DNA of 29,071 nucleotides, taken from contig CAZRGD010000001.1 of the NCBI GenBank assembly GCA_964599505.1, positions 1 through 29,071 on the forward strand, in the 5' to 3' direction. Position 1 is the stretch's first letter. Each line of letters begins with the position of its first letter. The notes under the pieces are model-generated. The model was given only the letters and a program-made list of their open reading frames with translations. It was not told where the DNA came from and did not search any database. This DNA comes from an uncultured Nitrospirota bacterium (GTDB lineage Bacteria > CG2-30-53-67 > CG2-30-70-394). Shown here piece by piece: positions 4,833-29,071 of the stretch. A program made the position numbers and the translations under genes.

Positions 4833-4874
4833 TTCGGTGTGACACCATGCCTCACCGCATGATTTCTGCGGTGG

Positions 4875-4909
4875 CCTCCCCTTCGGAATTGCCCATTCCG
4901 AAGGGGAGG
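4875..4909 (+). terminator. Perfect 15-bp stem-loop between dsrC and dsrM (terminator or mRNA-stabilising element)
   Basis: CCTCCCCTTCGGAAT-TGCCC-ATTCCGAAGGGGAGG; no U-tract follows. Confidence 0.6.
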
Positions 4910-11641: not shown

Positions 11642-11762
11642 CACCCGTCTCCTCTCCATGCCGCGGAGACACCCTTGCCGCGGTTCCCCACCTCATCGGC
11701 GATTTGGAGCGGTGGCTTACCGCTAACCGACGATACCCGTAGCTCAGGTGGATGGCCCGATG

Positions 11763-11849
11763 GGAACACGAAGTCACGAAAGGGGGAAAACACGAAAAGC
11801 CTTGATGGAGCTTTTTCGTGCTTTTCAAGATTTCGTGTTTTCGTGTTCC
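11763..11849. repeat. CACGAA/TTCGTG palindromic intergenic element
   Basis: CACGAA at 11767, 11775, 11791; TTCGTG at 11815, 11832, 11840; outer arms GGAACACGAA / TTCGTGTTCC are perfect inverted repeats. Confidence 0.8.
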
Positions 11850-11906
11850 TGTTTTGCCGGGTTCCTTGAGCTTTGCTGAGGCGGGTACCGCCAAGAGAGG
11901 GAGGCG

Positions 11907-12611
11907 CTATTGAGGGCGCGCGGCACGCTCGGCATGGCCCGAGGTGCCGAAGCGGCGAACGAGCTCCTCCAGCACCGCCTCGGGGGCGACGTCGCGGCTG
12001 GCGAGGGCGACGACCATGTGAAAGAGGAGATCGGCCGCCTCGTGGACCACGGCGGCGTCGTCCTCACCGGCAACGGCCGCGGCGAGCTCCCCAGCCTCCT
12101 CGGTGAGCTTCGCACCGATGTGCTCCGCGCCTCCGGCAAGGAGCTCGGCAACGTACGAGGTCTCGGGATCGCCACCGCGCCGCTGGCCGGCGACCTGCGC
12201 CAGGGCGGGGAGGATGTTGGCGGTGGTGGGGGCGCCGGCGTAGACCGCCTCCGGGTCGAAGAGCGCCTCGCCCACCTCGTGCGCGGTGTCGCCGTCGACC
12301 TGATTGAAGAAGCAGCTCCGCCTTCCCGTGTGGCAGGCGGCGACCGCCTGGTCGACCTGAAAGAGGAGGGTGTCGGCGTCGCAGTCGTAGGCGATCTTGC
12401 GCACCGTCTGCAGGTGGCCCGACGACTCCCCCTTCTTCCACATCTGCTGGCGCGAGCGAGAGAAGTAGTGGGCAAAGCCGCTCTCCTGGGTCAGGCGCAC
12501 CGCCTCGCGGTTGCAGTAGGCGAGCATCAGGACCTCGCCGGTGGCGGCGTCCTGGGCGATCGCCGGCAGGAGACCGCGGTCGTCGTACTTCAAATCATCG
12601 ATCCAACTCAT
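11907..12611 (-). CDS. hisIE: Bifunctional phosphoribosyl-AMP cyclohydrolase / phosphoribosyl-ATP pyrophosphatase
   Basis: [43 protein letters not shown]. Confidence 0.96.
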
Positions 12612-13384
12612 GACACGCCCTCCAGGCGCACCGCGACACCCCGCTCGGCGAGGTACTGCTTTGCCTCGCCGATGGTGTGCTCGCGGTAGTGAAAGATGGA
12701 GGCGGCGAGGACCGCATCGGCGTTGCCGTCCACCAGGCCGCTGTACAGGTGTTCCAGGGTGCCGGCGCCGCCGGAGGCGATCAGCGGCACCCGGGCACGG
12801 TTGGCGATGGCACGGTTGAGGTCATTGTCGTAGCCAATCTTCGTTCCGTCACGGTCCATGCTGGTGACCAGGAACTCCCCGGCTCCGTACTCCTCCATCC
12901 GCTCCGCCCACGCCAGGGCGTCGAGCCCCGTGGGGCGGCGACCCCCGTGGGTGTAGATCTCCCACCGTAGGGGCGCCTCGTCTACCCGTTTGGCGTCGAT
13001 CGCCACCACGATGCACTGGGCTCCGAACCGCTCCGCCGCCTCGCGGATCAGCTCCGGTCGCTTGACCGCCGCGGAGTTGATCGACACCTTGTCGGCGCCG
13101 GCGTTCAGCAGCGCCCGGATGTCCTCCACCGTGCGGATGCCGCCGCCGACGGTGAGCGGCATGAAGACCCGCTCGGCGGTCGCCTCGACGATCTCGTAGA
13201 TCGTGTCGCGCCCCTCGTGGGTGGCGGTGATGTCGAGGAAGCAGAGCTCGTCGGCGCCCTCGGCGTCGTATCGCTGGGCCACCTCCACCGGGTCGCCGGC
13301 GTCTCGGAGATCGACGAAGTTGACCCCCTTCACGACCCGCCCGCCGGCGACGTCGAGACACGGGATGATGCGCTTCTTGATCAT
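12608..13384 (-). CDS. hisF: Imidazole glycerol phosphate synthase cyclase subunit
   Basis: [39 protein letters not shown]. Confidence 0.97.
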
Positions 13385-13387
13385 CGC

Positions 13388-14119
13388 CTACCCCTCCCCG
13401 CCGCACGCCGCCAGCGCCTCGGCGAGGTCGAGGGCGCCGTCGTAGAGCGCCCGGCCGGAGATCATCCCGGTCACCCCCACCTTTTTTAGGGCGCAGATAG
13501 CGTGCACGTCGTCGAGGGAGGCGATGCCGCCGGAGGCGATCACTGGAACCGAGGTGGCGTCGGCGAAGGCGCGGGTCGCCTCCACGTTGTGGCCCTGCAT
13601 CATCCCGTCGCGGCTGATGTCGGTGTAGATGAAGCAGCTCACCCCGGCGTCGGCGAGCTGGGCAGCGAGGTCGATGGCGGCGAGGTCCAGCACCTCTACC
13701 CAACCACGCACCGCCACCATCCCGTCGGCGGCGTCGATCCCCACCGCGATCTGGCCGGGGAAGGCGGTGCATGCCCTGCGCACCAGGTCCGGATCACGCG
13801 CCGCGGCGGTGCCGAGGATCACCCGGTCGAGGCCAAGGGTGAGATACGCCTCGATCCGGTCGAGGTCGCGGATGCCGCCGCCGAGCTCCGCCGGGATGTC
13901 GATGACCGAGAGGATCGAGCGCACCGCCTCCAGGTTGCGCGGGCTCCCCTCGATGGCGCCGTCGAGGTCCACCAGGTGGAGATAGGGGGCGCCGCCCGCC
14001 TGCCACGCCGTCGCCTGGGCGGCGGGGTCTTCACCAAAGACGGTCGCGTCCTCCATGCGCCCCTGGCGCAGGCGGACGCAGCGGCCCTCTTTCAGGTCGA
14101 TTGCGGGGAGAAAAAGCAT
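13388..14119 (-). CDS. hisA: ProFAR isomerase
   Basis: [46 protein letters not shown]. Confidence 0.96.
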
Positions 14120-14325
14120 GGTCGTAGGGGCTCCTGGAGCGGGGCGGAAGGGTAGCAGCTACGCCGCCCTCGCCCCAGGGGGACGGTGCGATGGGTGGTG
14201 ATCGTCTCATCTTGATACGCGCCGTTTGCGGCGACTGTCTCAGATTGGAGCGGCTCATAAGGGAGTCGCCAAATGATATTGTTGTTTTTCAATGAGTTGG
14301 CGTGAATTGTCTCCCGAGTGGGACC

Positions 14326-14341
14326 TGGCACACGGATTGAT
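14326..14341 (+). promoter_or_regulatory. Sigma54-like motif upstream of the 92-aa ORF
   Basis: TGGCAC-ACGGA-TTGAT: perfect -24 element, -12 has GA instead of GC; CTGGCACACGG is identical to the site at 11129-11119. Confidence 0.45.
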
Positions 14342-14425
14342 AGAGGGGGGGGTAGGAAGCGTGCAGGAGTCGAGTGGGCTCCTATTTGAAGAATCTAAGG
14401 TGCAAGCCCCCCCACGGAGTCGATC

Positions 14426-14704
14426 ATGGAATCCCAGAACAACGCCCCCGAACCCGAGAAGAACGATTCGTTCAGTGAGCGGCTGACCGCCCTGCGCGAG
14501 GAGATCGCCATCCTCCCCGACGACAAGCGTGGTGAGTTGGAAGAGCTCGCCGACGCCACCGAGCGGCTCCACCAGCAGATGCGCAAGGCGACGACTCAGG
14601 CCCTGGCGCAGCTCGGTAACCTACAGCTCGGGATCAAGTACCTCCTCTTTGACCTGGAGGCGACCAAGCGGGAGAACGACGAGCTGCGTGGATCCAAGAA
14701 GTAG
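14426..14704 (+). CDS. Small coiled-coil hypothetical protein (92 aa)
   Basis: GGAG RBS, helical amphipathic sequence, C-terminal LGIKYLLFDLEATKREN. Confidence 0.8.
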   Translation: MESQNNAPEPEKNDSFSERLTALREEIAILPDDKRGELEELADATERLHQQMRKATTQALAQLGNLQLGIKYLLFDLEATKRENDELRGSKK

Positions 14705-14709
14705 GTTGC

Positions 14710-14871
14710 CTAGCGGCGATCGCGGCGTAGGGCGCCCACGAGCCGCAGATTGGGCTGGTGGACGATTCGCTCGACGATTGCGGTGAGCAACCGTTCGTCA
14801 TCGGTGAATCGCGACACGGCGGCGACCAACTCCAGCAAGGTGACTTCGATCCTTCTCTTCGTGGCAACCAT
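14710..14871 (-). CDS. Small hypothetical protein (53 aa), below the ORF-track cutoff
   Basis: MVATKRRIEVTLLELVAAVSRFTDDERLLTAIVERIVHQPNLRLVGALRRDRR; AGGTGG RBS; stop 5 nt from the convergent neighbour's stop. Confidence 0.65.
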   Translation of the reverse strand: MVATKRRIEVTLLELVAAVSRFTDDERLLTAIVERIVHQPNLRLVGALRRDRR

Positions 14872-14928
14872 GGCACCACCTACCGATTGGTTGACTCCCT
14901 GACCCCCTTTTCGTATCCGAAAGCGCCC

Positions 14929-16242
14929 GTGATAAACCCATTCTCTCGCCCTGGACGTTTTGCCTCACTGCGGGTCGCTGCGGCGGCGGCGACCGTCGTG
15001 ACCCTCCTCTTCGGTGGGGTCGCGGTGGCCTTCGGCGGTCTCGTTGCCGCCGTTGTGGCGGCCGTCTGTGCCGGGGTGACGGTCACCCTCGTCGCCGTCG
15101 ATCGCCGGCTCGTCTCTCCCCTCCTGGAGGAGCTCCGAGCCGCCCACTACGACGCCGCGGTGGCGCGCGAGGCGGTGGCCCTGGCACGGGTGGCCGCCGC
15201 CAGTCTCAGCCAGGGGTGCGATACCCTCGCAACCCTCGCGACTCACCATGGCCGCCTCCTCAACCCGATCCGGCGTAGTGAGTCGCCGGGGAAGAAGGGC
15301 GACAAGGGAGATTCTGCTCTCACCCCTCCCGCCCTCACCCGTGAGCTCCTGGGGCATGCCACCCCGGCGGCCAAGAACCACCGCTTTCTCGATGTCACTC
15401 CCCTTCTGGAGAATGTCGCCAAACGCCTCGGTCGACGGATTACTCCCGCCGTGCGTATCGATCTCCACCTCGAGCCCGGCCTTCCGGGGATCGACGGCAG
15501 CCCGGCACAGATTCGCCAGGTGATCCTCAGCCTCGCCCTGCGGGGCATCGCGGCGATGCCGCACGGCGGGACGCTGGAGCTCTCCAGCCGTCTCCTCGAT
15601 TTGCCGCAGGATAACGGCGAGGGGCTGTTGCAGGGACGCTATGTGGAGGTCGCGGTCGCCGACTCGGGCGATGCGGCACAGCCCGGGGAGGAGGGCGTTG
15701 CCGGCCACGGTCTGCTCGCCACTCCCCTCACCATCGCCACCGCGCGTGGTGTGGTAGCGGCCCACGGCGGTCGTCTCGACCTCTTCGCCGAGGCAGGGGA
15801 GGGGACCACGGTCACCCTCCTCTTCCCGGTCAGTGACGTCTCCGGGGAGGAAGCGGCATCTCCGCCCCCCAGTCGGCGAGGGTCCATCCTCGTCGTCGAC
15901 GACGATGTGGATGTGCGCAACCTTATCGACAACATCCTTACCCGCGGCGGCTATCACGTGGTGACCGTCGCCTCGGGTGAGGCAGGTTTGGATGTATGCC
16001 GGCACAACGCCGGCGAGATCGATCTGATCCTCGTGGACGTCGACCTTCCAGAACGCGAAGGGCGATCCCTCCTCCGTGAGCTCACCCGCGTGGCGGGCAA
16101 TGCGCGGGTCCTCGTCTGCCGCGGCCCCGGCGCTGGCGGCCTGCCGGTGGAGCTCGAGGGGATCGCGGGGATCCTTCCGAAGCCGTTTCGCATCCAGGAG
16201 ATGACCGACACCATCCGGCGCCTCCTCGACGAGCGGGCGTAG
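14929..16242 (+). CDS. Degenerate membrane hybrid histidine-kinase-like protein (HisKA-HATPase-REC architecture, likely pseudokinase)
   Basis: Two N-terminal TM helices; LTRELL, QIRQVILSLALRGIAAMP, VADSG, HGGRL, GEGTTVTLLFP; receiver ILVVDDD...DLILVDV...LPKPF. Start uncertain; GTG 14929 chosen because the track's 14758 start overlaps the 53-aa ORF. Confidence 0.8.
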   Translation: MINPFSRPGRFASLRVAAAAATVVTLLFGGVAVAFGGLVAAVVAAVCAGVTVTLVAVDRRLVSPLLEELRAAHYDAAVAREAVALARVAAASLSQGCDTLATLATHHGRLLNPIRRSESPGKKGDKGDSALTPPALTRELLGHATPAAKNHRFLDVTPLLENVAKRLGRRITPAVRIDLHLEPGLPGIDGSPAQIRQVILSLALRGIAAMPHGGTLELSSRLLDLPQDNGEGLLQGRYVEVAVADSGDAAQPGEEGVAGHGLLATPLTIATARGVVAAHGGRLDLFAEAGEGTTVTLLFPVSDVSGEEAASPPPSRRGSILVVDDDVDVRNLIDNILTRGGYHVVTVASGEAGLDVCRHNAGEIDLILVDVDLPEREGRSLLRELTRVAGNARVLVCRGPGAGGLPVELEGIAGILPKPFRIQEMTDTIRRLLDERA

Positions 16243-16247
16243 CCCGT

Positions 16248-16275
16248 CTATTTTTCGCCGGAGGGTGAAAAATAG
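16248..16275 (+). promoter_or_regulatory. AT-rich hairpin/palindrome overlapping the ldh ribosome-binding site
   Basis: CTATTTTTC-GCC-GGAG-GGT-GAAAAATAG; the 3' arm ends in the AG of AGGAGG. Confidence 0.5.
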
Positions 16276-16285
16276 GAGGAGCTCC

Positions 16286-17230
16286 ATGGGAACGACACAT
16301 CGGGTCGCGATCATCGGCTGCGGGCGGGTGGGGGCGACCACCGCCTTCGCCCTCCTGCACACGGGACAGGTGGAGGAGGTGGTCCTCATCGATGCCGACC
16401 GGGGGCGCGCCGAAGGCGAGGCGATGGACCTCGCCCACGCCACTGCCCTGCTGGCCCCGGCACGGGTGTGGGCGGGTGACTACGGCGACGCGGCCACTGC
16501 CGAGATCGCCATCCTCGCCGCCGGTCGCGCCTCCGCCACCCGCGACGAGAGCCGCCTGCAGCTCGTGGGCGACAACGCCCGGATCACCAAGACGATCGTT
16601 GGTGAGCTGGCGGCGGTCGGCTTCGACGGCTGCCTGCTGGTGGCCACCAATCCGGTCGACGTCCTGGCGCATGTCGCCGAGGTCGCCTCACCCCTGCCGG
16701 CGGCGCGGGTGATCGGCTCCGGCACGCTCCTGGACACCGCAAGGCTGCGCCAGCGGATCGCCGCCGCCTGCGGCCTCGACCCGCGCTCGGTCCATGCCCA
16801 TATCTTCGGCGAGCACGGCGACTCGGAGATCGCCGCATGGTCGTCGGCGACCATCGCCGGCCTGCCGTGGGCCGCCTTCGCCACCCAGACCGGCGCCGAT
16901 CTCGCACCGGAGGCGATCCTCGCCGAGGTGCGTGGCGCGGCGCCGGCGATCATCGAGCGCAAGGGGGCGACCAACTTCGCCATCGGTGCGGCCCTGGCCC
17001 GCCTCGTCTCCTGCATCTTGCGCGACGAGCGCTCCGTCCTCATGGTCTCCACTCGCCTGTCCGGCGAGTACGGCGAGCACGACGTCTACCTGTCGGTCCC
17101 GTGCGTCGTGGGCGGTGGCGGGGTGGAGCGGATCATCGAGCTCGATCTCAATTCGGAGGAGCAGGCCGGGCTACACCGCTCGGCGGAGATCCTCCGGCAC
17201 GTCGCCCGTCGCATCGGCGAGGCGGCGTGA
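16286..17230 (+). CDS. ldh: L-lactate/malate dehydrogenase family 2-hydroxyacid dehydrogenase (LDH-like)
   Basis: IIGCGRVG, ATNPVDV, SGTLLDTARLR, GEHGDSE, IIERKGAT; atypical substrate loop, so substrate is unproven. Confidence 0.8.
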   Translation: MGTTHRVAIIGCGRVGATTAFALLHTGQVEEVVLIDADRGRAEGEAMDLAHATALLAPARVWAGDYGDAATAEIAILAAGRASATRDESRLQLVGDNARITKTIVGELAAVGFDGCLLVATNPVDVLAHVAEVASPLPAARVIGSGTLLDTARLRQRIAAACGLDPRSVHAHIFGEHGDSEIAAWSSATIAGLPWAAFATQTGADLAPEAILAEVRGAAPAIIERKGATNFAIGAALARLVSCILRDERSVLMVSTRLSGEYGEHDVYLSVPCVVGGGGVERIIELDLNSEEQAGLHRSAEILRHVARRIGEAA

Positions 17231-17252
17231 GCACCCGGAAACGGTCAGCCGA

Positions 17253-17717
17253 CTACCGCCTCTCCCCCATGGCCGCCTCCGCCAGGTGGTACTGACCCGC
17301 CGCCTCGGAGTGGGTGTCGCCGCGATCCTCGGCGATCATCTCGCAGGTTCGCGCCATGCGGGCGTAGAGGGCGGCGCGCCACGCGGGGTTGCCCATCTCC
17401 GCCGCCACCTCCGGCGGCGCGGTGGCGGCGGCGGCCGCGGCGGCGACGAAGTGGCCCGCCTGGCTGCGCCACTCGGTGTCGTGGCCGCACTGGGTGAAGC
17501 TCTCTGCCGCTGCCGCCTTCGCCTCGTGGTGGGCGGTGGCGAGGAGCGGCGCTCCGATCTCCGCCTGGGCCGCCACCTCCACCGCCTGGCGTACCCTCGG
17601 GTCGTCGGAGAGGGCGAGGACCGCAGCCGCAAACCGGCTCGCCAGGCGGCGGCATGTCGTCGGGGAGAGATGGTCGAGGGCGGCTCGGAGCTCGTGGTCG
17701 TTGGTGATCGGGGTCAT
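17253..17717 (-). CDS. Hypothetical all-helical protein, last gene of the hydrogenase operon
   Basis: AGGAG RBS, 18 nt after the hynL stop; Ala-rich helices with W..QAGHFVA and AW.AA..ARMAR..E segments. Confidence 0.75.
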   Translation of the reverse strand: MTPITNDHELRAALDHLSPTTCRRLASRFAAAVLALSDDPRVRQAVEVAAQAEIGAPLLATAHHEAKAAAAESFTQCGHDTEWRSQAGHFVAAAAAAATAPPEVAAEMGNPAWRAALYARMARTCEMIAEDRGDTHSEAAGQYHLAEAAMGERR

Positions 17718-17735
17718 CGTCGCGCTCCTCTCGCC

Positions 17736-19466
17736 TCATTGAATCCGTACCTGCACCAGCTCCCCCTGGTCCGGGTCGCTCACGTGGACGGCGCAGGCGA
17801 TGCACGGGTCGAAGGAGTGGATCGTGCGGAGGATCTCGATGGGCCGCTTCGGGTCCGCCAGACGGTGGCCGGCGAGGGCCGCCTCGTACGGTCCTGGCTG
17901 GCCCTTCGCATCCCGCGGGCCTCCGTTCCAGGTGGAGGGGACCACCGCCTGATAGTTGGCGATCCGGCCGCCCTCGATGGAGACCCAGTGGGCGAGGGCG
18001 CCGCGTGGCGCCTCCATGAAGCCGACCCCGCGGCAGCGATCGGGCCAGGTGGCGGGCTCCCACCGGTCGCCGTTGAAGGTGGTGAGGTCGCCCGCCTTGA
18101 TGTTGGCCAGCAGCCGCTCATACCAGCCGGTCATGGCGTCGGCGAAGAGCTTCGTCTCCAGGCCACGGGCGGCGGTGCGGCCGAGGGTGGAGAAGAGGGC
18201 CTCTTGCGGCAGGTCGAGCTTGGCGAGCGTCGTGTCCACCAACTCCTGTGCCGCCGGGTTGCCGGTGGCGTAGAGCATCAGGATTCGTGCCAGGGGTCCG
18301 ACCTCCATGGGGCGACCGCGCCAGCGCGGTGACTTGATCCACGAGTAGGACTGCGCCACATCGAGGTGCTTGTAGGGCGGCTCGGGACCGGTGTAGTGGA
18401 GGGCGGTCTCGCCGTCATACGGGTGGAGCGGCTCTTCCTTGCCCGCAGCGTAGTCGTACCACGAGTGGGCGATGAGCTCCTGGATCTGGGCCGGGTCGCA
18501 GAGGTTGAGCGGCTCGACCGTGGCGAGGTCGCGGTCGACGATCACCCCGCCGGGGACGAGGTAGCTCGCCGGGTCGCCGATCCCCTTTTCCGGGAAGTCG
18601 CCGTAGCAGAGGAAATTGCCCACCCCCTCCCCCTGGCGCGCCCAATCCTTGTAATAGGAGGCGATGGCCAGCAGGTCCGGGAGGTAGACCTGGTCGACGA
18701 AGGTGCGCATCGACGCGATCACCTCGCCCACCTGTGCCAGCCCCACCATGTCCAGGGCGGTCCCTGCCTGGCCGCCGCTGTCGACCGAGATGGCACACGG
18801 CACCCCGCCGACGACGAAGCTCGGGTGCGGGTTCTTGCCCCCGAAGATGGTGTGCAGCTTGACCACGTCACGCTGCCAGGTGAGCGCCTCCAGGTAATGG
18901 GCCAGGGCCATGAGGTTCGCCTCCGGCGGCAGCTTGTACGCCGGGTGGCCCCAGTAGCCGTGGGCGAAGATGCCGAGCTGCCCCGATTCGACGAAGGCGG
19001 CGAGGCGCGAACGCACCTCGGCGAAGTAGCCCGGCGACGACTTCGGGTAGGCGGAGATCGACTGGGCGAGGGCCGAGGTCTGCCGTGGGTCCGCCTTCAG
19101 GGCGGAGACCACGTCGACCCAGTCGAGGGCGTGGAGGTGGTAGAAGTGCATCACGTGGTCGTGGACGTGCTGGGCCGCGGACATCAGGTTGCGGATCAGC
19201 TCGGCGTTCGGCGGCACGGTGATCTCCAGGGCGTTCTCCACCGCGCGTACTGAACAGAGGGCGTGGACCAGGGTGCAGACGCCGCAGATCCGCTGGGTGT
19301 AGGCCCACGCATCGCGCGGATCCTGCCCCTTCAGGATGATCTCGATGCCGCGGACCATCGTCCCGGAGGAGTACGCCTGGCGGATCACCTCCCCGTCCAT
19401 CTCCGCCTCGATGCGCAGGTGGCCCTCGATGCGGGTGATCGGGTCGACGACGATTCGCTCAGCCAT
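17736..19466 (-). CDS. hynL: [NiFe] hydrogenase large subunit, group 1 (Isp/1e-type by context)
   Basis: DPITRIEGH, L1 QRICGVCTLVH, L2 SFDPCIACAVH followed by a 15-aa cleavable tail. Confidence 0.96.
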   Translation of the reverse strand: MAERIVVDPITRIEGHLRIEAEMDGEVIRQAYSSGTMVRGIEIILKGQDPRDAWAYTQRICGVCTLVHALCSVRAVENALEITVPPNAELIRNLMSAAQHVHDHVMHFYHLHALDWVDVVSALKADPRQTSALAQSISAYPKSSPGYFAEVRSRLAAFVESGQLGIFAHGYWGHPAYKLPPEANLMALAHYLEALTWQRDVVKLHTIFGGKNPHPSFVVGGVPCAISVDSGGQAGTALDMVGLAQVGEVIASMRTFVDQVYLPDLLAIASYYKDWARQGEGVGNFLCYGDFPEKGIGDPASYLVPGGVIVDRDLATVEPLNLCDPAQIQELIAHSWYDYAAGKEEPLHPYDGETALHYTGPEPPYKHLDVAQSYSWIKSPRWRGRPMEVGPLARILMLYATGNPAAQELVDTTLAKLDLPQEALFSTLGRTAARGLETKLFADAMTGWYERLLANIKAGDLTTFNGDRWEPATWPDRCRGVGFMEAPRGALAHWVSIEGGRIANYQAVVPSTWNGGPRDAKGQPGPYEAALAGHRLADPKRPIEILRTIHSFDPCIACAVHVSDPDQGELVQVRIQ

Positions 19467-22486: not shown

Positions 22487-22499
22487 CACCACCTCCGGA

Positions 22500-23033
22500 T
22501 TACGGTGCAGTCTCCCGGTTGTCCAACCCTGGCGAACTCTCCACCAACCCACTACTGTCCTCCCCATGGCTCCAGCGCTTTACCACCTTCATCGCGAGGC
22601 GGGCGGCGATCGGTACCGCTGCCGCCACCTGCGGTGTGAGCCGGGTTCCCCACTCCAGCGAGGCGGGCTCGATCGTGATCAAGGCGCGCTCCACCGGCGG
22701 CTTCCAGCCGGCGAGGCGGGCAAGGTCGAGGAGATCGGCGAGGCCGATCTCATGGGCGGTGCGGCCTCGGCAGGCGAGCATCCGGTCCATCGCCTCCCCC
22801 TCCAGGAGTCGCACGCTCCCGGGCTCATCGCCCATCCGTCCGGCATCGATGACGAGAAGCCGCCGGCAGCAGGTGAGGGAGGAGATGAAGGAGAGGTCCA
22901 GTGCCCCCGCTTCGTGATAGACGACGCCGTCCTCTGGGGGATGGTCGCGACGCAGCATGGCGAGGCAGACGATCCCGGCACCGTCATCGCTCATCAGGGG
23001 GTTACCGATGCCGAGGATCAGGATGTCCTGCAT
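22500..23033 (-). CDS. hupD: Hydrogenase maturation endopeptidase (HyaD/HupD family)
   Basis: ILGIGNPLMSDDGAG, LVIDAG, AHEIGL; GAGGAG RBS before ATG 23033. Confidence 0.9.
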   Translation of the reverse strand: MQDILILGIGNPLMSDDGAGIVCLAMLRRDHPPEDGVVYHEAGALDLSFISSLTCCRRLLVIDAGRMGDEPGSVRLLEGEAMDRMLACRGRTAHEIGLADLLDLARLAGWKPPVERALITIEPASLEWGTRLTPQVAAAVPIAARLAMKVVKRWSHGEDSSGLVESSPGLDNRETAP

Positions 23034-23144
23034 CCCACCACTCCTCTCTTGCGCCTTGAGCACGCAGCGAAAGCGGCCTTGCGTGCGTCGGTCGGAAACC
23101 GCTTTCATATTTGACTATAGCGAAAAAAATGGTGATTTGAGTCA

Positions 23145-23164
23145 ACAAACTTATGGTAGTTTGT
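23145..23164. promoter_or_regulatory. Inverted repeat in the AT-rich divergent hupD/hypC promoter
   Basis: ACAAACT-N6-AGTTTGT; also TTGACT (23111-23116) ... AGTCAA (23140-23145). Confidence 0.45.
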
Positions 23165-23211
23165 AAAGTATTCTTTTCTGTATAAAGAGCTGACACCACT
23201 CTGCTGCTGCC

Positions 23212-23460
23212 ATGTGTCTCGCCATCCCCATGCGTATCGAGGTGATCGACGGCTTCAACGCCCGCTGTGAGGCGAAGGGGGTAGAACGCGACGTCTCCCT
23301 CTTCCTCCTCCAGGGCGAAGAGGTTGCGGTGGGCGACTACGTGATGGTCCACGTGGGCTACGCGATCCAAAAGGTGGCGCAGGCGGACGCCGAGGCGTCG
23401 TGGGCCCTGTTTGACGAGATCCTCGCCACCGAGCCGCCGCCGAACGGCGGCGGGGGGTAG
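23212..23460 (+). CDS. hypC: Hydrogenase maturation chaperone HypC
   Basis: MCLAIP N-terminus, GDYVMVHVGYAI. Confidence 0.96.
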   Translation: MCLAIPMRIEVIDGFNARCEAKGVERDVSLFLLQGEEVAVGDYVMVHVGYAIQKVAQADAEASWALFDEILATEPPPNGGGG

Positions 23461-23473
23461 CCGCGGATGGGTG

Positions 23474-23697
23474 CGCAGAGAGGAGCGGGCGTCATGCCGG
23501 CTCGGGGCACTACGGCGACCGCTCGGACGATGGGTAGGAGCCGGCTCCTGCCGGCGATCCCAGCCCAGGGGGCTGGCGGGGCCTGCGGCCCCGTTTCGCG
23601 AGCGGGAGCTCGCTCCTACCGGGGTGGCGGGGGCTGGTTGCGATGCCCGGGAGGGCCGGTCACCTCTCTGCGTCTCTGCCCCTCTGCGTCTCTGCGT
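23474..23697. repeat. Nested intergenic element: GTAG-type REP doublet inside CGCAGAG/CTCTGCG arms
   Basis: REP1 GGTAGGAGCCGGCTCCTGCCGGCGA (23533-23557); inverted REP2 (23596-23620) reads GGTAGGAGCGAGCTCCCGCTCGCGA. Outer CGCAGAGAGG (23474-23483) complements CCTCTCTGCG (23663-23672), within four 8-bp CTCTGC(G/C)(T/C) units (23666-23697). Confidence 0.8.
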
Positions 23698-23738
23698 TGG
23701 AAAACGTCCAGCCACCGATCTTTCAGAGGAGACTCCCG

Positions 23739-24824
23739 GTGACCGCCGGGGCTACGTGGCTGGCGCGGATCCGCGCCCTTGATCTGCCGGAGCGGGTGCG
23801 GATCATGAATGTCTGTGGGGGGCATGAGCGCGCCATCGCCCAGGCGGGGCTACGCTCCGTCCTGCCGGAGGAGATCGAGCTCATCCCCGGCCCCGGCTGC
23901 CCGGTCTGTGTCTGTCCGGAGGAGGCGATCTACCACGCGATCCGCCTGAGCCTCGACGAGAGGGTCACCCTCGTCGCCTTCGGCGACATGCTGCGGGTGC
24001 CGGTAAACGTCGCCAGGGGAGAGGTGCGCTCCCTGGAGGAGGCGCGGGGTCTCGGCGGCGACGTCCGCCCCATCGCCTCACCCACGGAGGCCAGGGCAAT
24101 CGCCGAGGCGGAGCCGGAGCGCACGGTGGTCTTCTTCGCCGCCGGCTTCGAGACCACCACCGCGCCGGTGGCCGCCCTGGTGGCCGAGGGGCTGCCGGAG
24201 AACCTCCTCCTGCTCACCGCCTGCCGTCGCACCTGGCCGGCGGTGGCGCTGCTGTTGGAATCAGGCGAGGCGGGCTTCGACGGCCTGGTGGCGCCGGGCC
24301 ATGTGGCCACGGTGATGGGGCCGGAAGAGTGGTCGTTCGTCGCCGAACGGTTCCGGATCCCGGTGGCGGTCGCCGGCTTCACCCCCGAGAGCCTCCTGGC
24401 CGCCTTCGACTCGGTGGTCCGCCAGCACCTCGCGGGCCACCCCCACCTCACCAACTGCTACCCGCGGGTGGTCCGGCCCGGGGGCAACCGGGCGGCGCAG
24501 CAGATGCTGGCGGCGACCTTCGACGTGGTCGACGCCCCGTGGCGCGGCATCGGCACCCTGCCGGCCTCGGGCTACCGGCTGAAGGAGCGGTACGCCGACC
24601 ACGACGCCGCCCTCCGTTTTCCCGCCGTCACCGAGCGGGCCCGCGCCCGCGCCGGGGAGATGCCCGCCGGCTGCGGCTGCGCCGAGGTGGTCCTCGGTCG
24701 CCTCACCCCCACCGCCTGCGTCCTCTACGGCCACCCCTGCACCCCACGCGCGCCGGTGGGGCCGTGCATGGTCTCCGACGAGGGGGCGTGCCGCATCTGG
24801 TGGTCGAGCGGCAATCGTGGCTGA
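23739..24824 (+). CDS. hypD: Hydrogenase maturation protein HypD
   Basis: NVCGGH, GPGCPVC, GFETT, PGHV, C-terminal CGC...C...CTP...CMVSDEGAC; GAGGAG RBS before GTG 23739. Confidence 0.95.
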   Translation: MTAGATWLARIRALDLPERVRIMNVCGGHERAIAQAGLRSVLPEEIELIPGPGCPVCVCPEEAIYHAIRLSLDERVTLVAFGDMLRVPVNVARGEVRSLEEARGLGGDVRPIASPTEARAIAEAEPERTVVFFAAGFETTTAPVAALVAEGLPENLLLLTACRRTWPAVALLLESGEAGFDGLVAPGHVATVMGPEEWSFVAERFRIPVAVAGFTPESLLAAFDSVVRQHLAGHPHLTNCYPRVVRPGGNRAAQQMLAATFDVVDAPWRGIGTLPASGYRLKERYADHDAALRFPAVTERARARAGEMPAGCGCAEVVLGRLTPTACVLYGHPCTPRAPVGPCMVSDEGACRIWWSSGNRG

Positions 24825-24852
24825 GGCCACGATTGGGGCTGGGTGCAGGCCC

Positions 24853-25179
24853 TCAGCTCGCGGCCTCGTCGAGGCCGAGGGCGAAGCAGAGGGCGCGGTC
24901 GACCTCGGCCATCTTTTTTGGAGAGACCGCGCCCGCGGGTTGGATCAGGCGGCGTTTGGGGATGGTGGTGACGGTGTCGAGGTTGGCGACACACCTTTTG
25001 GGTAGTCCCTCCGCCCGTCCAAGAGCGACTTCCACCGGTAGCCTGCGGATCCGCGTGGTCACCGGGGCTACGGTCACCAGGGTGCGCACCGCATACGCCT
25101 CGTTGCGCGAGAGGAGGAGCACTGGACGTCGACCCGCCGGGGATGGGAGCTCTGCCCACCACACCTCACCTCGTCTCAT
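24853..25179 (-). CDS. mazF: MazF/PemK-family mRNA interferase toxin
   Basis: MRRGEVWWA, GRRPVLLLSR, VAPVTT, NLDTVTTI; ATG overlaps the antitoxin stop (ATGA). Confidence 0.92.
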   Translation of the reverse strand: MRRGEVWWAELPSPAGRRPVLLLSRNEAYAVRTLVTVAPVTTRIRRLPVEVALGRAEGLPKRCVANLDTVTTIPKRRLIQPAGAVSPKKMAEVDRALCFALGLDEAAS

Positions 25180-25433
25180 TCCCACGGCTCCTCGCCAAAG
25201 ACCTCCCCTGCCACCGTTTCGGAGAGGGCCTCCTCTTCCCCCTCGGGGTGGCGCTGGTAGCCAGCGACGTACTCGGCCACGCGTTCGGTATGGCTCTGGC
25301 GGACAAAAAGGAGCTCGATGGCGCGACGGATGAAGGCGCTCCGGCTCTCAGAGCGAGCAGTACGCTCCCGCTCCATCCGTTCCAGCAACTCCTCCGGGAG
25401 GCTGATGGCGATCTTCTTGCAGTGCGAGATCAT
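25176..25433 (-). CDS. Ribbon-helix-helix antitoxin (CopG/MazE-like)
   Basis: KIAISLPEELL...SRSAFIRRAIE; acidic C-terminus; coupled to mazF. Confidence 0.85.
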   Translation of the reverse strand: MISHCKKIAISLPEELLERMERERTARSESRSAFIRRAIELLFVRQSHTERVAEYVAGYQRHPEGEEEALSETVAGEVFGEEPWE

Positions 25434-25540
25434 GGGATAGTGTCGATGCTCAAGTCTTACCACAGTATGAGAAGAATAATACCACTAGGCATACAAAGCA
25501 GCTAAGAACACTTTGCCCTCGCGGGTATGGCGTGTTCCCC

Positions 25541-26293
25541 TCACCACCCCCAGTCGGCCAGCTCCGCCATGAAGGGGCGGGCGGTGAGGTCGAAGTGGAT
25601 CGGGGTGACGGCGACGTAGCCCTCCGCCAGGGCGGTGTCGTCGACGGTCTCGCCATGGTCGGGGATCAGGGTCTCTCCCGCCTGCCAGTAGTACTGCTTG
25701 CCGCGCGGGTCGACGCGTGCCTCGAACGCCTCGACGAATCGCCCCTGCCCCTGCTCGGTGACGCGGAAGCCGTGGATCTGCTCGCGTGGAATCGGCGGGA
25801 CGTTGACGTTGAGCAACACCCCGTCGGGCAGCCGGTGGGCGAGGATCTGCTCGGCCACCTCCACAGCGATCTCCGCCGCGGGTCCAAATTCCGGCTCCAT
25901 GGACCAGCCGCGGGAGATGGCGAAGGAGGGGATGGAGAGGATCGCCCCCTCGGTTGCGGCGGAGACGGTCCCCGAGTAGATGACGTTGTGGCCGGTGTTG
26001 GCGCCGTGGTTGATCCCCGAGACCACCAGGTCCGGCGGTGCCTCCATCAGCATGCGCACCGCCAGTTTCACGCAGTCCGCCGGGGTGCCGTTGACCGCTC
26101 GGCCGAAGAGGACCCCATCGTGAAAGACCTTCTCCACCCGCAGGGGATCGGTGAGGGTGATGGCGTGGCCGACCGCGGAGCGCTCCGCCAGGGGTGCCAC
26201 CACGGTCACCTCGCCGAGGCGCGCCATCGCCTTGGCCAGGCGGTAGAGCCCCTCGGCGTGGATGCCATCGTCATTGGTCACCAAGATCCGCAT
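25541..26293 (-). CDS. surE: 5'/3'-nucleotidase SurE
   Basis: RILVTNDDG, GTPADCV, SGINHGAN, YSGTVSAA, LNVN. Confidence 0.96.
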   Translation of the reverse strand: MRILVTNDDGIHAEGLYRLAKAMARLGEVTVVAPLAERSAVGHAITLTDPLRVEKVFHDGVLFGRAVNGTPADCVKLAVRMLMEAPPDLVVSGINHGANTGHNVIYSGTVSAATEGAILSIPSFAISRGWSMEPEFGPAAEIAVEVAEQILAHRLPDGVLLNVNVPPIPREQIHGFRVTEQGQGRFVEAFEARVDPRGKQYYWQAGETLIPDHGETVDDTALAEGYVAVTPIHFDLTARPFMAELADWGW

Positions 26294-27068
26294 GCCATGC
26301 CTCCAGTCGCGCCGCGTCGTAGGTCACCTCCACCAGACAGAGCCCCTCGGGACGGGCGGTGGGGCCGGCGGCAGCACGGTCACGCGCCGAGATGATCGGG
26401 GCGAGGGCGCCGCTTGGCAAGCGGCCTCGTCCTACCTCCAGGAGGGTGCCGGCGATCGCCCGCACCATGTGCTTCAAAAAACCAGTGCCGGCGATCTCCA
26501 GGTGGAGCTCGTCGCCTACCGGGCTGAAGCGCGCCCCCACCACCTCGCGCACGGTGGTGGTGGTGTCGGCGTCGGAGGCGCAGAAGCTGGCGAAGTCGTG
26601 GGTCCCTACCAGGGGCGCCACCGCCGCGGCCATCGCCGCCACGTCCAGGGGGCGAGATTCCCAAAAGACGAACGGCCGGCGGAAGAGGGGGCGTAGCGGC
26701 CGGTTGAGGATCCGGTAGCGGTAGAGCTTTCCGCAGGCGGCGAAGCGGGCGTGGAAGTCGGGCTCCACCGGCTCCAACTTGCGGCAGAGGATGTCCGGCG
26801 GCAGGAGGGCGTTGATCCCGCGCAGGAGCGCCGTCGCTGCGAACGGCCGCTCCAGGTCGAAGTGGGCCGGGAGGTGGTTCGCGTGGACCCCGGTGTCGGT
26901 GCGCGAGGCGGCGTGGATCCGCACCGGCCGGTCGCACAGGCGCGACAGCGCCGCCTCCACCGCCCCCTGCACGGTCACCTGATTGGGCTGCACCTGCCAG
27001 CCGGCGTAGGCGGTGCCCTCGAAGGCGAGGTGCAGCAACAGGCGCTGGCCGGCGACGAGGTCGCTCAC
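26271..27068 (-). CDS. truA: tRNA pseudouridine(38-40) synthase TruA
   Basis: FEGTAYAGWQ, SRTDTGVHA (catalytic Asp), GTHDFASF, FLKHMVRAIAG; GTG 27068 overlaps the ecfT stop. Confidence 0.95.
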   Translation of the reverse strand: MSDLVAGQRLLLHLAFEGTAYAGWQVQPNQVTVQGAVEAALSRLCDRPVRIHAASRTDTGVHANHLPAHFDLERPFAATALLRGINALLPPDILCRKLEPVEPDFHARFAACGKLYRYRILNRPLRPLFRRPFVFWESRPLDVAAMAAAVAPLVGTHDFASFCASDADTTTTVREVVGARFSPVGDELHLEIAGTGFLKHMVRAIAGTLLEVGRGRLPSGALAPIISARDRAAAGPTARPEGLCLVEVTYDAARLEAWHADLGDQ

Positions 27069-27796
27069 AGCGCGCCTTTCTGGAGGAGCCAGCCGGTGGC
27101 GACCACGGCGGCGACGGCGACGGCGAAGAGGCCATCGGCGGCGGTGAGGCGCAGGGCGGCGGCCGCCGTCGTCGGGTCGGTGAGCGTGCCGGCCTCGGCG
27201 GCCGTGGCACGGGCGGCGATTTCCGCCTCGCCCGCGGTGATCAGCCGCCGCAGGCGGCCGTCGAGATCGAGCGGCCCCTCGCGCCAGGTGTGCAGGTGGG
27301 CAGCGAACCATGGCAGAAAGCCGAGGGCGAGGGAGGCGACCACCACTGCGTGGTGCAGGCGATGGCCCGGGGCGGCGAGGCGACCGGCGAGGCGGGCGAG
27401 GCCCGCCACCAGCGCCTCGGGCTCCACCGCCCGGTAGAGGGCATGGGCGATCCACACCGCCCCGATCAGGCGCACCGCGGTGAGCAGCGCGAGGTGCACC
27501 CCCTCGCGGGTGATCCACAGGTGCAGGGGTGCCACTCCGATCAGGACGTGGCCCGGGGTCAGGACCAGGTTGAGGGTCACGGTGATCAGCAGCAGCGCCC
27601 GGAGGAAGCGGAGGATGGCGAGGAAGGGGCGGCCGGGGAGGTGGTGGAGGAGCCCGTAGGCGACCCCTGCGGCGGCGAGGACGGCGAGGGCGGCGGGTCG
27701 CTCCCAGCGGAAGAGGGGGAGGAGGAGGGCGAGGGCGAAGAGGAGGTGGGTGCGCGGGTCGAGCGGCGACGGGCGGCGATCGAGGGCGGGCAGCAT
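27065..27796 (-). CDS. EcfT/CbiQ-like energy-coupling-factor transmembrane protein (divergent)
   Basis: LDPRT N-terminal motif, ITREG...R...PEAL helix pattern, adjacency to truA. Confidence 0.65.
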   Translation of the reverse strand: MLPALDRRPSPLDPRTHLLFALALLLPLFRWERPAALAVLAAAGVAYGLLHHLPGRPFLAILRFLRALLLITVTLNLVLTPGHVLIGVAPLHLWITREGVHLALLTAVRLIGAVWIAHALYRAVEPEALVAGLARLAGRLAAPGHRLHHAVVVASLALGFLPWFAAHLHTWREGPLDLDGRLRRLITAGEAEIAARATAAEAGTLTDPTTAAAALRLTAADGLFAVAVAAVVATGWLLQKGAL

Positions 27797-27800
27797 GACT

Positions 27801-28102
27801 ACAGAAGGCAGAAGGCAGAAGGCGGTAGGCAGTGGGAGGCGAGGGCGAAGTATGGCGTGTCCTGCGCCGTTCCCAAGGCCCCCACCATAATCGTCGGTTC
27901 CAAATCGGGATCGGGATCGAAATCGGCTGTACCGTCGCCAGAGACCGCATGCTCTCGCGAAGCGGGTAGCCTCTGTTGCCAAGATGGCTGAGCGGAGCCA
28001 GCGCTCGTCGAACCCGATAGCGATCCCGATCCCGATAGCGATGGCCCCAACGTTCCCCCCCGGGCCAGGACTGCCTACTGCCTACTGCCCTCTGCCCTCT
28101 GT
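27801..28102. repeat. Nested inverted short-period repeat element between bioD and ecfT
   Basis: Outer 7-bp-unit arms 27801-27833 and 28070-28102 (29/33 complementary); inner 6-bp-unit arms 27904-27926 and 28014-28036 (21/23 complementary). Confidence 0.85.
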
Positions 28103-28105
28103 CTA

Positions 28106-28828
28106 CTACCTCAGCGGTTCCCCCGACAGGGCGTAGGCCGCCTGATAGAGGGCGGCGCCGTTGAACCGACGGGCGAGCCGCTCCCAGGTGGCGGGGTCGG
28201 TGGGCGCCGTTACTTCCGGGAGGCGGGCCACGAGGGGGACGCGACACAGGGCCACCAAGTCCTCCACCGCGTGTACCACCGCCGGTTCTGCCTCGGTCCC
28301 GACCACCTGGTTTACCACCATCCCCACCACCGCCACGTGGGCGGCGCGCAGGGCGCGGAGGGTGAGCCAGGTGTGGTTGAGGGTACCGAGGCGCGGGGTG
28401 GTCACCACCAGGCAGGGGAGGTGGAGGGTGGCGAGCCAGTCCAGGAGGGTGGCCTTAGGGGTGAGGGGGACGCCGAGGCCGCCGATCCCCTCGACCACCA
28501 CGAAGGGGTGGTGGAGCCGCAGGCGGGTCACGAGAGCGGTGAGCGCCGCGACATCCACCTCCTGCCCCGCCTCGCGCGCCGCGCGCAGGGGGGCAGCGGG
28601 GGTCGGGAAGCGTAGGGCGCATGCCTCCTCGGCGGTCAGCTCACCGTCCGCGGCGGCGCGCAGGCGGGCGGTGTCCTCGCCCTCGCTTCCCACGACCCCG
28701 GTCTCCACCGGCTTGCACGCCACCGCCATCACATGGGCCTGGCGCAAGGCGCGGGTCACGGCGCACGCCACCACCGTCTTGCCGACGCCGGTGTCCGTCC
28801 CGGTGATGAAGAGGCCGCTGCCGAGCAT
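28106..28828 (-). CDS. bioD: Dethiobiotin synthase
   Basis: FITGTDTGVGKT, CKPVETG, VVEGIGG, LGTLNHT. Confidence 0.95.
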   Translation of the reverse strand: MLGSGLFITGTDTGVGKTVVACAVTRALRQAHVMAVACKPVETGVVGSEGEDTARLRAAADGELTAEEACALRFPTPAAPLRAAREAGQEVDVAALTALVTRLRLHHPFVVVEGIGGLGVPLTPKATLLDWLATLHLPCLVVTTPRLGTLNHTWLTLRALRAAHVAVVGMVVNQVVGTEAEPAVVHAVEDLVALCRVPLVARLPEVTAPTDPATWERLARRFNGAALYQAAYALSGEPLR

Positions 28829-28878
28829 GGGGGGAGTATCGCCGATCTTCCTCGATCAAGCTGCCATGGGGACAAAAC

Positions 28879-28960
28879 CACGAAGACCACGAAGTTCACG
28901 AAGGGGAAAACGGCAGTCGGCAGTCGCCGTAGGGTGGCGCCAAGCGAAGCGCGGCGTACC
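28879..28960. repeat. Composite repeat stack: 3x CACGAAG (period 9), 2x GGCAGTC, GTAG-type REP-like hairpin
   Basis: CACGAAG at 28879, 28888, 28897; GGCAGTC at 28912, 28919; GTAGGGTGGCGCC-AAGCGAAGCGC-GGCGTACC at 28929-28960. Confidence 0.7.
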
Positions 28961-29071
28961 GAATTCCGGACCATTGCAGAATTTGGGTACCCAATCGAAG
29001 CACGTGCGACGCGAATCGCGTGGGCGTTGGGCTCCATCTCCGACACCGCTTTCACCATGAAGAGCATGAAG

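Follow-up and report, generated by a model that had tools for sequence, protein, structure and literature searches.

Coxiella's intervening sequence (IVS), one of the closest described counterparts of the elements reported here, has terminal inverted repeats that form a stem of about 28 bp and enclose a single PF05635 open reading frame (ORF) of about 120 aa, for a total of about 430 nt (PMC4990558). The distribution of rRNA IVSs is sporadic, suggesting horizontal transfer, and their excision by RNase III has been shown (PMC4990558). The TAACTGA heptamers of Beggiatoaceae, cyanobacteria and Bacteroidetes occur as 2–6 tandem copies in spacers, often beside start codons, and these arrays are mixed with other heptamer families and absent from the shorter spacers of close relatives (PMC4679880). 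They were described as direct repeats, with an inverted partner in 1 of 170 sets, and their phylogenetic scatter suggested horizontal transfer, “but no mechanism is evident” (PMC4679880). Non-autonomous copies of repetitive extragenic palindromes (REPs) and of REPINs are presumed to depend for their movement, in trans, on a single-copy gene flanked by the same repeats (PMC3116915). Here we compare with these systems four intergenic palindromic sites in a 29,071-bp stretch of DNA (contig CAZRGD010000001.1, positions 1–29,071; hereafter the window, meaning this whole stretch) of an uncultured Nitrospirota bacterium. The arms of these sites are tandem arrays of short units.

We consider it probable that the four sites are gene-less, mostly stacked copies, similar to miniature inverted-repeat transposable elements (MITEs), of a widespread class of IVS-like palindromic hairpin cassettes. 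A cassette arm in this class is a tandem array of about 20–35 nt, either of a 7-mer with a spacer of 1–3 nt or with a plain 7-nt period, and the loop may be a few dozen nucleotides long, contain a further cassette or, in full-length members, carry a single small gene adjoining the arms. From homology, the cargo of the full-length members is a 123-aa GxxExxY protein, a predicted PD-(D/E)XK nuclease, or a predicted four-helix-bundle protein of about 115 aa from the 23S rRNA intervening sequence family. The class is widespread and apparently undescribed: no published description of this anatomy was found in the literature searched, which covers few subscription journals.

Arms, cores and nesting of the four sites

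Sequence inspection and inverted-repeat, tandem-repeat and shuffle tests all confirmed the four sites and five unit types of a preliminary description of this DNA. Inverted arms of short tandem units are present in four spacers, at 11763–11849 (site 1), 23471–23697 (site 2), 27801–28107 (site 3) and from 28877 to beyond the end of the window (site 4). The placement in spacers also agreed with the first account: hisIE and a response-regulator gene (both minus strand) flank site 1, hypC and hypD (plus strand) flank site 2, bioD and cbiQ (minus strand) flank site 3, and the divergent bioD and acylphosphatase genes flank site 4. At least two tandem copies of a 6–9 nt unit are found on both arms of sites 1, 3 and 4, while site 2 has four units on the right and one on the left. 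The purine-rich reading of the unit (CACGAAG, CGCAGAG or GGCAGAA) runs from the outside inward in every arm of the window. The statement that the annotated genes do not explain these structures was likewise upheld.

Site 4 had been taken for a half-site, an appearance that arises because the window ends before its right arms. The site was completed from an overlapping contig (L001) that is 99.9% identical to the window and 924 nt longer, in which the right arm, (CTTCGTG)x2-GTTTTGCCC, lies about 330 nt away, just past the window end. Inside site 4, this contig also carries a complete (CATGAAG)3/(CTTCATG)2 hairpin (at about 29051–29118) and a TTCAC-CACAGAG-CGCCGAG-CGCCGAG half-arm. Nesting had been claimed for two sites; with site 4 completed, three of the four sites are concentric. 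The parts of the sites, none of which is assigned a strand, are as follows, with the supporting evidence in parentheses.

11763–11799: site 1 left arm, GGAA-CACGAAG-T-CACGAAA-GGGGGAAAA-CACGAAAAG (sequence, inverted repeat I4; pairs with 11811–11849 in the minimum-energy fold)
11811–11849: site 1 right arm, CTTTTTCGTG ... TTCGTG-TT-TTCGTG-TTCC, then TGTTTTGCC, which is also the tail of the site 4 arms (sequence, inverted repeat, fold)
11742–11893: about 150 nt containing the site 1 hairpin, missing from the orthologous spacer of two relatives (alignment with L612 and L611)
23471–23484: site 2 outer left arm, the single unit GTG-CGCAGAG-AGG (sequence; pairs with CCTCTCTGCG in the fold; GTGCGCAGAGG kept in L005)
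23533–23620: inner element of site 2, consisting of two GTAG-headed REPs in inverted orientation (23533–23557 and 23596–23620), REPIN-like (inverted repeat I8; not at this site in L005 or L006)
23665–23697: site 2 outer right arm, four units of TCTCTGCG/CCTCTGCG, the reverse complement of the CGCAGAG units (Tandem Repeats Finder; kept in L005)
27801–27836: site 3 outer left arm, (GGCAGAA)x3-GGCGGTA-GGCAGT, period 7 (inverted and tandem repeats, fold)
27904–27926: site 3 inner left arm, ATCGGG-ATCGGG-ATCGAA-ATCGG, period 6 (inverted and tandem repeats, fold)
27927–28013: site 3 core, 87 nt, with no ORF and no GxxExxY or four-helix-bundle remnant (sequence, remnant search)
28014–28042: site 3 inner right arm, CGATAG/CGATCC units (inverted repeat, fold)
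28070–28107: site 3 outer right arm, (ACTGCCT)x2-ACTGCCC-TCTGCCC-TCTGTCT (inverted and tandem repeats, fold)
28868–28910: site 4 outer left arm, GGGGACAAAAC-(CACGAAG NN)x3-GGGAAAA (sequence, fold; its partner is the right arm at window-equivalent positions of about 29211–29239)
28911–28928: site 4 array of two CGGCAGT units, stacked within the CACGAAG arm (tandem repeats)
28929–28960: site 4 imperfect palindrome, GTAGGG-headed and REP-like, GTAGGGTGGCGCC...GCGCGGCGTACC (sequence only)
29051–29071: start of the compact inner hairpin of site 4, TCAC-(CATGAAG NN)x3 ... (CTTCATG)x2, which runs to window-equivalent position of about 29118 (sequence, L001, fold)

Site 3 occupies nearly the whole of its spacer, with the right outer arm overlapping the bioD stop codon (28106–28108) and the left outer arm 4 nt from the cbiQ ATG (27795–27797). 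The cbiQ ATG is abutted by a pyrimidine-rich arm (27795–27836), so that a separate ribosome-binding site is lacking.

For each of the unit patterns, the observed count exceeded those of all 100 dinucleotide-preserving shuffles. There were four matches to CACGAAN{1,4}CACGAA (0.00 expected), three to CTCTGCN{1,4}CTCTGC (0.02 expected), six to GGCAGN{1,3}GGCAG (0.52 expected) and four to the ATCGGGATCG pattern (0.19 expected). There was no inverted repeat of 16 nt or longer in the first 11.7 kb of the window, and the palindromic material is therefore confined to four of the approximately 12 spacers that are longer than 60 nt. Folding with RNA parameters, with z-scores calculated against shuffles, gave −40.4 kcal/mol for site 1 (z −6.3), −172.3 kcal/mol for site 3 (z −8.1) and −192.6 kcal/mol for site 4 as extended by L001 (z −6.5), and at these three sites a long stem is formed by the terminal inverted repeats. 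In the site 3 fold, GGCAGAA/GGCAGTA arms enclose ATCGGG arms, which enclose the core, and all are paired. The fold of site 2 pairs the outer CGCAGAGAGG with CCTCTCTGCG around the GTAG-REP doublet, which also pairs. Sites 1 and 4 are most likely CACGAAG cassettes, the latter with the CATGAAG hairpin and other arrays inside it. Site 2 is most likely an older CGCAGAG cassette that later received an ordinary REP doublet, and site 3 is most likely a GGCAGAA cassette enclosing an ATCGGG hairpin of local origin.

The same units are found far beyond this bacterium. A scan of one genome per species with a three-unit CACGAAG pattern gave, among the matches listed, loci in Methylococcaceae, Desulfobacterota, Acidobacteriota, Planctomycetota, Verrucomicrobiota, Chloroflexota, Heliobacteria, Thermotogae, Nitrospiria and others, including complete genomes such as those of Herpetosiphon aurantiacus DSM 785 and Desulfonema magnum, and half of these loci had an inverted partner 8–410 nt away. 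The common end form of the CACGAAG elements is (T)TCAC-CACGAAGG ... CCTTCGTG-GTGA(A). CGCAGAG and GGCAGWA arrays were equally abundant in IMG/VR contigs. Polarity is fixed in all three families, convergent and divergent pairs numbering 59 and 3 for CACGAAG, 25 and 2 for CGCAGAG, and 40 and 2 for GGCAGWA. In addition, the two arms of an element agree in the spacers between their units in 35% of cases, compared to 8% in shuffled pairings (0 of 2000 shuffles reached 35%).

These distributions bear on the idea that the arrays are binding sites for a host protein (operators, iteron-like arrays or sites for a nucleoid protein) or bidirectional terminators. Conserved 7-mers with variable spacers do resemble repeated sites for protein binding, the genes on either side of site 4 are divergent, and GTTTTG follows the arms of sites 1 and 4. 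Against this, the sites are dispensable in close relatives, they are located between unrelated genes in unrelated phyla, and the co-variation of spacers between the arms of one element is not required of a pure array. A role as terminators is further countered by the lack of a proper T-run on the transcribed strand at sites 1–3. We regard binding sites or terminators as the least likely of the explanations weighed here.

One further arrangement of the CACGAAG unit was noted in Desulfonema magnum (CP061800; L092, 1–420), where four tandem copies of a module of about 105 nt each consist of a CACGAAG...CTTTGTG mini-hairpin and a GGCGGGACACATCCG hairpin.

Small genes between tandem-unit arms

The cores of the elements are mostly 8–190 nt long. 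A few are 340–480 nt, and each of these contains one ORF. At two loci (L016 and L093), CACGAAG arms enclose a GxxExxY ORF (TIGR04256, E 1e-42 and 1e-45; PF13366, PD-(D/E)XK nuclease superfamily). At another (L438), GGCAGAA arms, the outer unit of site 3, enclose a gene of PF05635, annotated as “23S rRNA intervening sequence protein”, whose product, a four-helix bundle, is a distant relative of bAvd. Four-helix-bundle genes at three more loci (L579–L581) are flanked by the unit seen in the outer left arm of site 3. The preliminary description had suggested looking for GxxExxY and four-helix-bundle genes carrying such arms, and both searches were positive. Tandem C[AG][CT]NNA[GT] heptamer arrays flank 68 of 80 metagenomic GxxExxY genes, a proportion that may overstate the GxxExxY family as a whole because the sampling was seed-biased, the 80 loci being the closest relatives of the CACGAAG-flanked seeds. 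The units in these flanks were CACGAAG (18), CACAGAG (17), CACGGAG (7), CATGAAG (7), CGCAGAG (7) and others, and the heptamer units formed the best inverted repeat between upstream and downstream sequence in 45 of the 75 loci whose flanks were adequate. The nearest protein neighbor shares the unit type in 36 of 68 cases, where 10.7 were expected (0 of 5000 permutations), indicating that protein and arm co-vary.

On viral contigs, narrow alignments gave one and three loci. A broader four-helix-bundle alignment gave 32 genes (IMG/VR), and inverted arms with a 7-nt period surround about 21 of these. The arm units of this family are diverse (GGCAGAA, GGCAGGA, GGAAGAA, TAGGGTG, AGTGGAG, ACGTTGA and others), and the closest relatives of the L438 protein all have GGCAGAA-like units. 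The window therefore shares with ORF-bearing members the units CACGAAG, CATGAAG and CGCAGAG (GxxExxY) and GGCAGAA (four-helix bundle), though not ATCGGG. The CATGAAG arms of the inner hairpin of site 4, for example, recur around GxxExxY genes at L511, L527 and L529.

The fit between arms and gene can be very close. In one locus (L628), the ATG directly follows the last CACGAAG unit and the right arm begins 3 nt past the stop codon, which makes the cassette about 430 nt long in all, as large as the Coxiella IVS. The units of the 5′ arms resemble Shine-Dalgarno sequences (GAAGG, GGAGG, AGAGG) and those of the 3′ arms anti-Shine-Dalgarno sequences (CCTTC, CCTCC), as seen at L628 (1480–1503) and L638 (1440–1475).

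In named genomes, GxxExxY genes lie within operons, co-oriented with their neighbors, between fabD and fabG in Sphingomonas parapaucimobilis (NZ_CP155749; L638), between ade and manC (mannose-1-phosphate guanylyltransferase) in Bernardetia (NZ_CP147018; L637) and between two ABC-transporter ATPase genes in Syntrophobacter SbD1 (L622). The arms in the complete Sphingomonas and Bernardetia records are CGCGAAG and CACAGAG. These places between housekeeping genes are of the same kind as the bioD-cbiQ, hypC-hypD and hisIE-regulator spacers of the window. GxxExxY proteins of exactly 123 aa are 67–80% identical across Syntrophobacteraceae, Bipolaricaulota, Brocadiia, Latescibacteria, Desulfobacter and Lacimicrobium, which looks like the result of recent horizontal spread, judging by protein identity.

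The GxxExxY family comprises at least 7997 proteins at E 1e-10 or better, the number that reached this threshold among 8000 candidates. Its AlphaFold model has a pLDDT of 66, and a Foldseek search of the PDB with this low-confidence model returned nothing at E 0.001 or better, the weak top matches including the PD-(D/E)XK enzymes MspJI and EcoRV. Sequence searches found no solved structure for the family. The two solved structures of IVS-type four-helix bundles (PDB 2gsc and 2rld) each have five chains per entry, and bAvd is a pentamer; the arms commonly have 3–5 units.

The ORF-bearing cassettes are similar to the 23S rRNA IVSs of Leptospira and Coxiella in layout and size, and one of them carries the outer unit of site 3, GGCAGAA. 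The copies in the window differ from IVSs in their location, which is between protein-coding genes instead of in rRNA helices, and in lacking an ORF. The window arms are tandem arrays of short units, and within the literature searched neither tandem-unit stems nor GxxExxY cargo belongs to the published picture of IVSs. The TAACTGA arrays are like the window arms in being tandem 7-mers, scattered across phyla and absent from close relatives. They differ in that their authors drew no link to GxxExxY or four-helix-bundle genes, whereas here the arrays are inverted pairs of fixed polarity that enclose cores, cassettes or ORFs. The short tandemly repeated repetitive (STRR) sequences of cyanobacteria (Mazel et al. 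1990) are reportedly intergenic tandem heptamer repeats as well. We tentatively raise a wider possibility, which we hold to be somewhat short of probable, that a single pan-bacterial class of mobile hairpin cassettes may unite GxxExxY, the IVS four-helix bundles (relatives of Avd) and the STRR/TAACTGA heptamer arrays. Its full-length members would encode a protein recognizing the heptamer arrays on hairpin or cruciform DNA, spread would proceed by cutting and templated repair with no target duplication, gene-less copies would ride in trans, and the rRNA IVS would be the special case of a cassette in an rRNA helix. Gene-less copies that landed preferentially in existing hairpins would then build concentric nests.

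The nature of the enclosed genes also bears on whether all arms could be REP variants, that is, REP mosaics or bacterial interspersed mosaic elements (BIMEs), spread by a REP-associated tyrosine transposase (RAYT; IS200/IS605-like) encoded elsewhere in the genome. Site 2 has two GTAG-headed REPs in the textbook inverted arrangement, site 4 a GTAGGG-headed palindrome, and nested palindrome mosaics in spacers without target duplication are typical of REPs and BIMEs; the window elements resemble REPs, REPINs and BIMEs in precisely these features, as short spacer palindromes that are mosaic or nested. However, the tandem-unit arms are arrays without a GTAG head and not single imperfect palindromes. 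A GTAG-headed palindrome of 20–40 nt is found only at 23533–23557 and 23596–23620 and in no tandem-unit arm. The enclosed genes encode GxxExxY (68/80) and four-helix-bundle (~21/32) proteins, although these loci were retrieved by homology to the two families, so that carriage of RAYT genes elsewhere is compatible with these counts. In addition, no RAYT gene is present in the window or at the loci of its relatives. The REP systems thus have an HUH tyrosine transposase where the tandem arms here have PD-(D/E)XK nuclease and four-helix-bundle genes, and the link to RAYT/HUH enzymes proposed in the preliminary description stands only for the ordinary REP pair inside site 2. Overall, we find it very unlikely that RAYT-driven REP spread accounts for the tandem-unit arms.

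Gain, loss and stacking of cassettes

Syntenic relatives were retrieved via homologues of BioD and of the lactate/malate dehydrogenase (LDH) encoded in the window, and contigs of other sequencing runs were aligned to the window. In two hot-spring runs (X4 and X6), a contig from a relative about 90% identical has 45 nt between the equivalents of 27782 and 28128 and lacks the whole 308-nt site 3. Site 1 is an insertion of about 150 nt relative to the hisIE/response-regulator spacer of two relatives (L612, LDH 91% identical; L611, 86%). A mat run (X3) has one extra CGATAG unit in the inner right arm of site 3, and ATCGGG arms surround different cores and have different flanks on other contigs of the same community. 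The bioD-cbiQ spacer varies from 0 nt, with the genes overlapping (L011), through 78 (L494), 83 (L005), 216 (L493) and 308 nt (window) to 397 nt (L006), and the spacers of relatives carry other units, such as four copies of GCTGANN, or seven of GCGGACA opposite 2–3 imperfect partners.

Other arms have persisted. At site 2, L005 has kept the left GTGCGCAGAGG and the right TCTCTGCC-CCTCTGCG array, which form a tight hairpin there, and lacks the REP doublet. In the (CTTCGTG)n-GTTTTGCCCC array next to bioD at site 4, three units are present in the window and in L493 and one in L005, and everything beyond the array differs. These data from relatives show a rapid turnover in which whole cassettes are gained and lost, unit numbers change and some arms persist. 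In the acylphosphatase-bioD spacer, the location of site 4, L493 (140–240) and L006 (3640–3731) have long, near-perfect palindromes with non-repetitive arms, GGGGTCAGG...CCTGACCCC, which belong to a different hairpin family from the site 4 arms.

The gene-less elements share with MITEs their small size, terminal inverted repeats, lack of coding capacity, many copies and longer, gene-bearing relatives with the same ends, as well as presence/absence polymorphism, which was seen at sites 1 and 3. They differ from MITEs in the absence of target-site duplication, in candidate partner proteins that are not known transposases and in inverted repeats that are internally repetitive. Small dispersed repeats (SDRs) of Nostoc (Elhai et al. 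2008) are said to be very small mobile repeats that occur in spacers within hairpin-forming contexts and within each other, and for which no enzyme is known. As these occur in another group of organisms and their 21–27 nt units are not described as tandem-heptamer arms, the likeness is only a lead.

Stacking predominates where different families meet. Among mixed-family clusters within 300 nt, 31 were stacked on the same side (>>, <<, >><, >><< or ><<) compared to about six side by side, a pattern that matches the nests in the window. For the ORF-bearing cassettes, in which the transcribed strand is known, 85% of arm positions were Watson-Crick paired, and mismatches compatible with G·U pairing numbered 88 on the sense and 93 on the antisense strand (p 0.77). 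As selection on an RNA stem would favor the sense strand and no bias was seen, the arms behave as DNA-level inverted repeats.

The preliminary description had offered two interpretations, which these results support in part. The first, a guild of non-autonomous elements that target one another's hairpins, agrees with the presence/absence data, the polarity across many phyla and the stacking; as to mutual targeting, nesting was seen and the order of events was not. The second was a single mechanism at the level of single-stranded DNA or RNA that would add paired arms; the absence of a G·U strand bias counters an RNA level.

Several observations, in addition to the seed-biased sampling, weigh against reading the four sites as copies of mobile cassettes. 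Searches for transposase, RAYT, GxxExxY and four-helix-bundle genes were negative both for the window, for which the preliminary description had already reported the lack of a transposase, and for about 90 kb of syntenic relatives, and the site cores gave no match to an ORF remnant of the GxxExxY or four-helix-bundle family with E values of up to 50 allowed. All 63 CACGAAG elements compared lacked flanking direct repeats of 3 bp or longer, and repeats of 1–2 bp were barely above the shuffled expectation. Neither a transposition event nor an excision footprint was seen in any comparison. Two GxxExxY proteins that were looked up on several contigs proved to be at the same locus in different samples, not at several loci per genome. 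The arms conserved singly at the orthologous places of sites 2 and 4 are in relatives only 83–85% identical in BioD, and some arrays are therefore old residents rather than recent arrivals. Solo arrays and highly unequal arms are common (L493, L011), for which slippage fits at least as well as transposition, and the fold of site 2 (−155.9 kcal/mol, z −2.5) is marginal relative to shuffles. Outside this community, ATCGGG was found in IMG/VR as three-unit arrays without inverted partners; the ATCGGG family is supported only within this community and could not be tied to the wider cassette class. Eight convergent ATCGGG matches elsewhere were rejected, as they were plain 10-mers in unrelated sequence.

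Much of this would also be expected if the sites were home-grown structured spacers, in which arms arise by slippage or template switching and are kept for a useful RNA hairpin that serves in RNase III processing, mRNA stabilization or Shine-Dalgarno masking. The recurrence of 7-mers across phyla would then reflect a shared constraint, and the small ORFs would merely be expressed from such hairpins. Consistent with this explanation, the number of units changes at fixed sites, arrays are commonly solo or lopsided, the orthologous sites 2 and 4 retain one arm while the interior changes, and there is neither a target duplication nor an enzyme nearby. The ribosome-binding-site-like 5′ units, the anti-Shine-Dalgarno-like 3′ units and the ORF start directly after the last unit are also in its favor. 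It does not readily accommodate the presence or absence of whole cassettes, including their unique cores, between relatives about 90% identical, or identical arms around unrelated cores in unrelated genomic contexts. The strict polarity, the association with two specific protein families, the protein-arm co-variation and the lack of a sense-strand excess of G·U over A·C mismatches argue against it as well, and GxxExxY proteins about 70% identical across phyla point to horizontal movement of the whole unit. We therefore consider a home-grown origin unlikely, while viewing it as the strongest of the competing explanations.

Under the hairpin-cassette explanation that we favor, the cassettes would be mobile DNA that inserts without target duplication into intergenic spacers, preferentially in or beside existing hairpins. 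Gene-less copies, such as those in the window, would be mobilized in trans by the proteins of full-length copies elsewhere in the genome. The PD-(D/E)XK nuclease probably acts on hairpin or cruciform DNA, cleaving it at the heptamer arrays, and templated repair would follow. Resident arms would then expand, shrink and decay by slippage. By analogy with rRNA IVSs, the transcribed stems are probably substrates for RNase III (PMC4990558), and such processing would make insertions inside operons tolerable.

Gene neighborhood and consequences

If correct, this explanation has consequences for several fields. GxxExxY and the IVS-type four-helix bundles are two very large families of small proteins without known function, GxxExxY being rarely mentioned in the literature searched, and a single anatomy links both of them with intergenic heptamer arrays, making each testable. 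A PD-(D/E)XK nuclease acting on structured repeats without target duplication may represent a new route for moving DNA, and the cassettes would offer an origin for rRNA intervening sequences. They also have practical effects. Cassettes break metagenome assemblies, with L001 and several Logan contigs ending inside them, and they cause over-long gene calls. In L001 (418–939, window-equivalent 29057–29578), the call of a 173-aa “acylphosphatase” is over-extended across the site 4 cassette, and the true 90-aa gene starts from L001 690. Finally, cassettes inside essential operons (fabD-fabG, bioD-cbiQ, hypC-hypD) may alter mRNA processing and translation.

The window has a G+C content of 67%, and its sequence is also present in hydrothermal-vent, microbial-mat and hot-spring metagenomes. 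No RNA sequencing run was found to contain it. It contains a dsrEFH-dsrC-dsrMK sulfur cluster, hisA/F/IE, two response regulators, the LDH gene, the gene for a NiFe hydrogenase large subunit, hypC, hypD, a toxin-antitoxin pair of the PemK/ribbon-helix-helix (RHH) type, surE, truA, cbiQ and bioD. The nearest named homologue of the LDH, 69% identical, is labeled as from a Nitrospirota metagenome-assembled genome. An Rfam scan at the gathering score gave no matches in the window, including none to rRNA, and a tRNA/tmRNA scan found none there. With E up to 1, Rfam had no matches in 27700–29071, which includes sites 3 and 4, and on 18 loci with CACGAAG cassettes it returned nothing except one tRNA.

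A few further features of the neighborhood were noted. The dsrEFH-dsrC region (2500–4900) has a G+C fraction of 0.49–0.58, below the 0.67 of the remaining window, and the dsrH-dsrC spacer of about 600 nt (3894–4490) is without any repeat. A gene for an AAA_14/DUF4143 ATPase is present between cbiQ and truA in L005 (11673–12860) and L493 (2229–3416) and is not in the window. The PemK (MazF-like)/RHH pair (24853–25463) lies between hypD and surE, where L005 has a DUF433/PIN pair and L006 has nothing, which makes this place an apparent hot spot for toxin-antitoxin cassettes.

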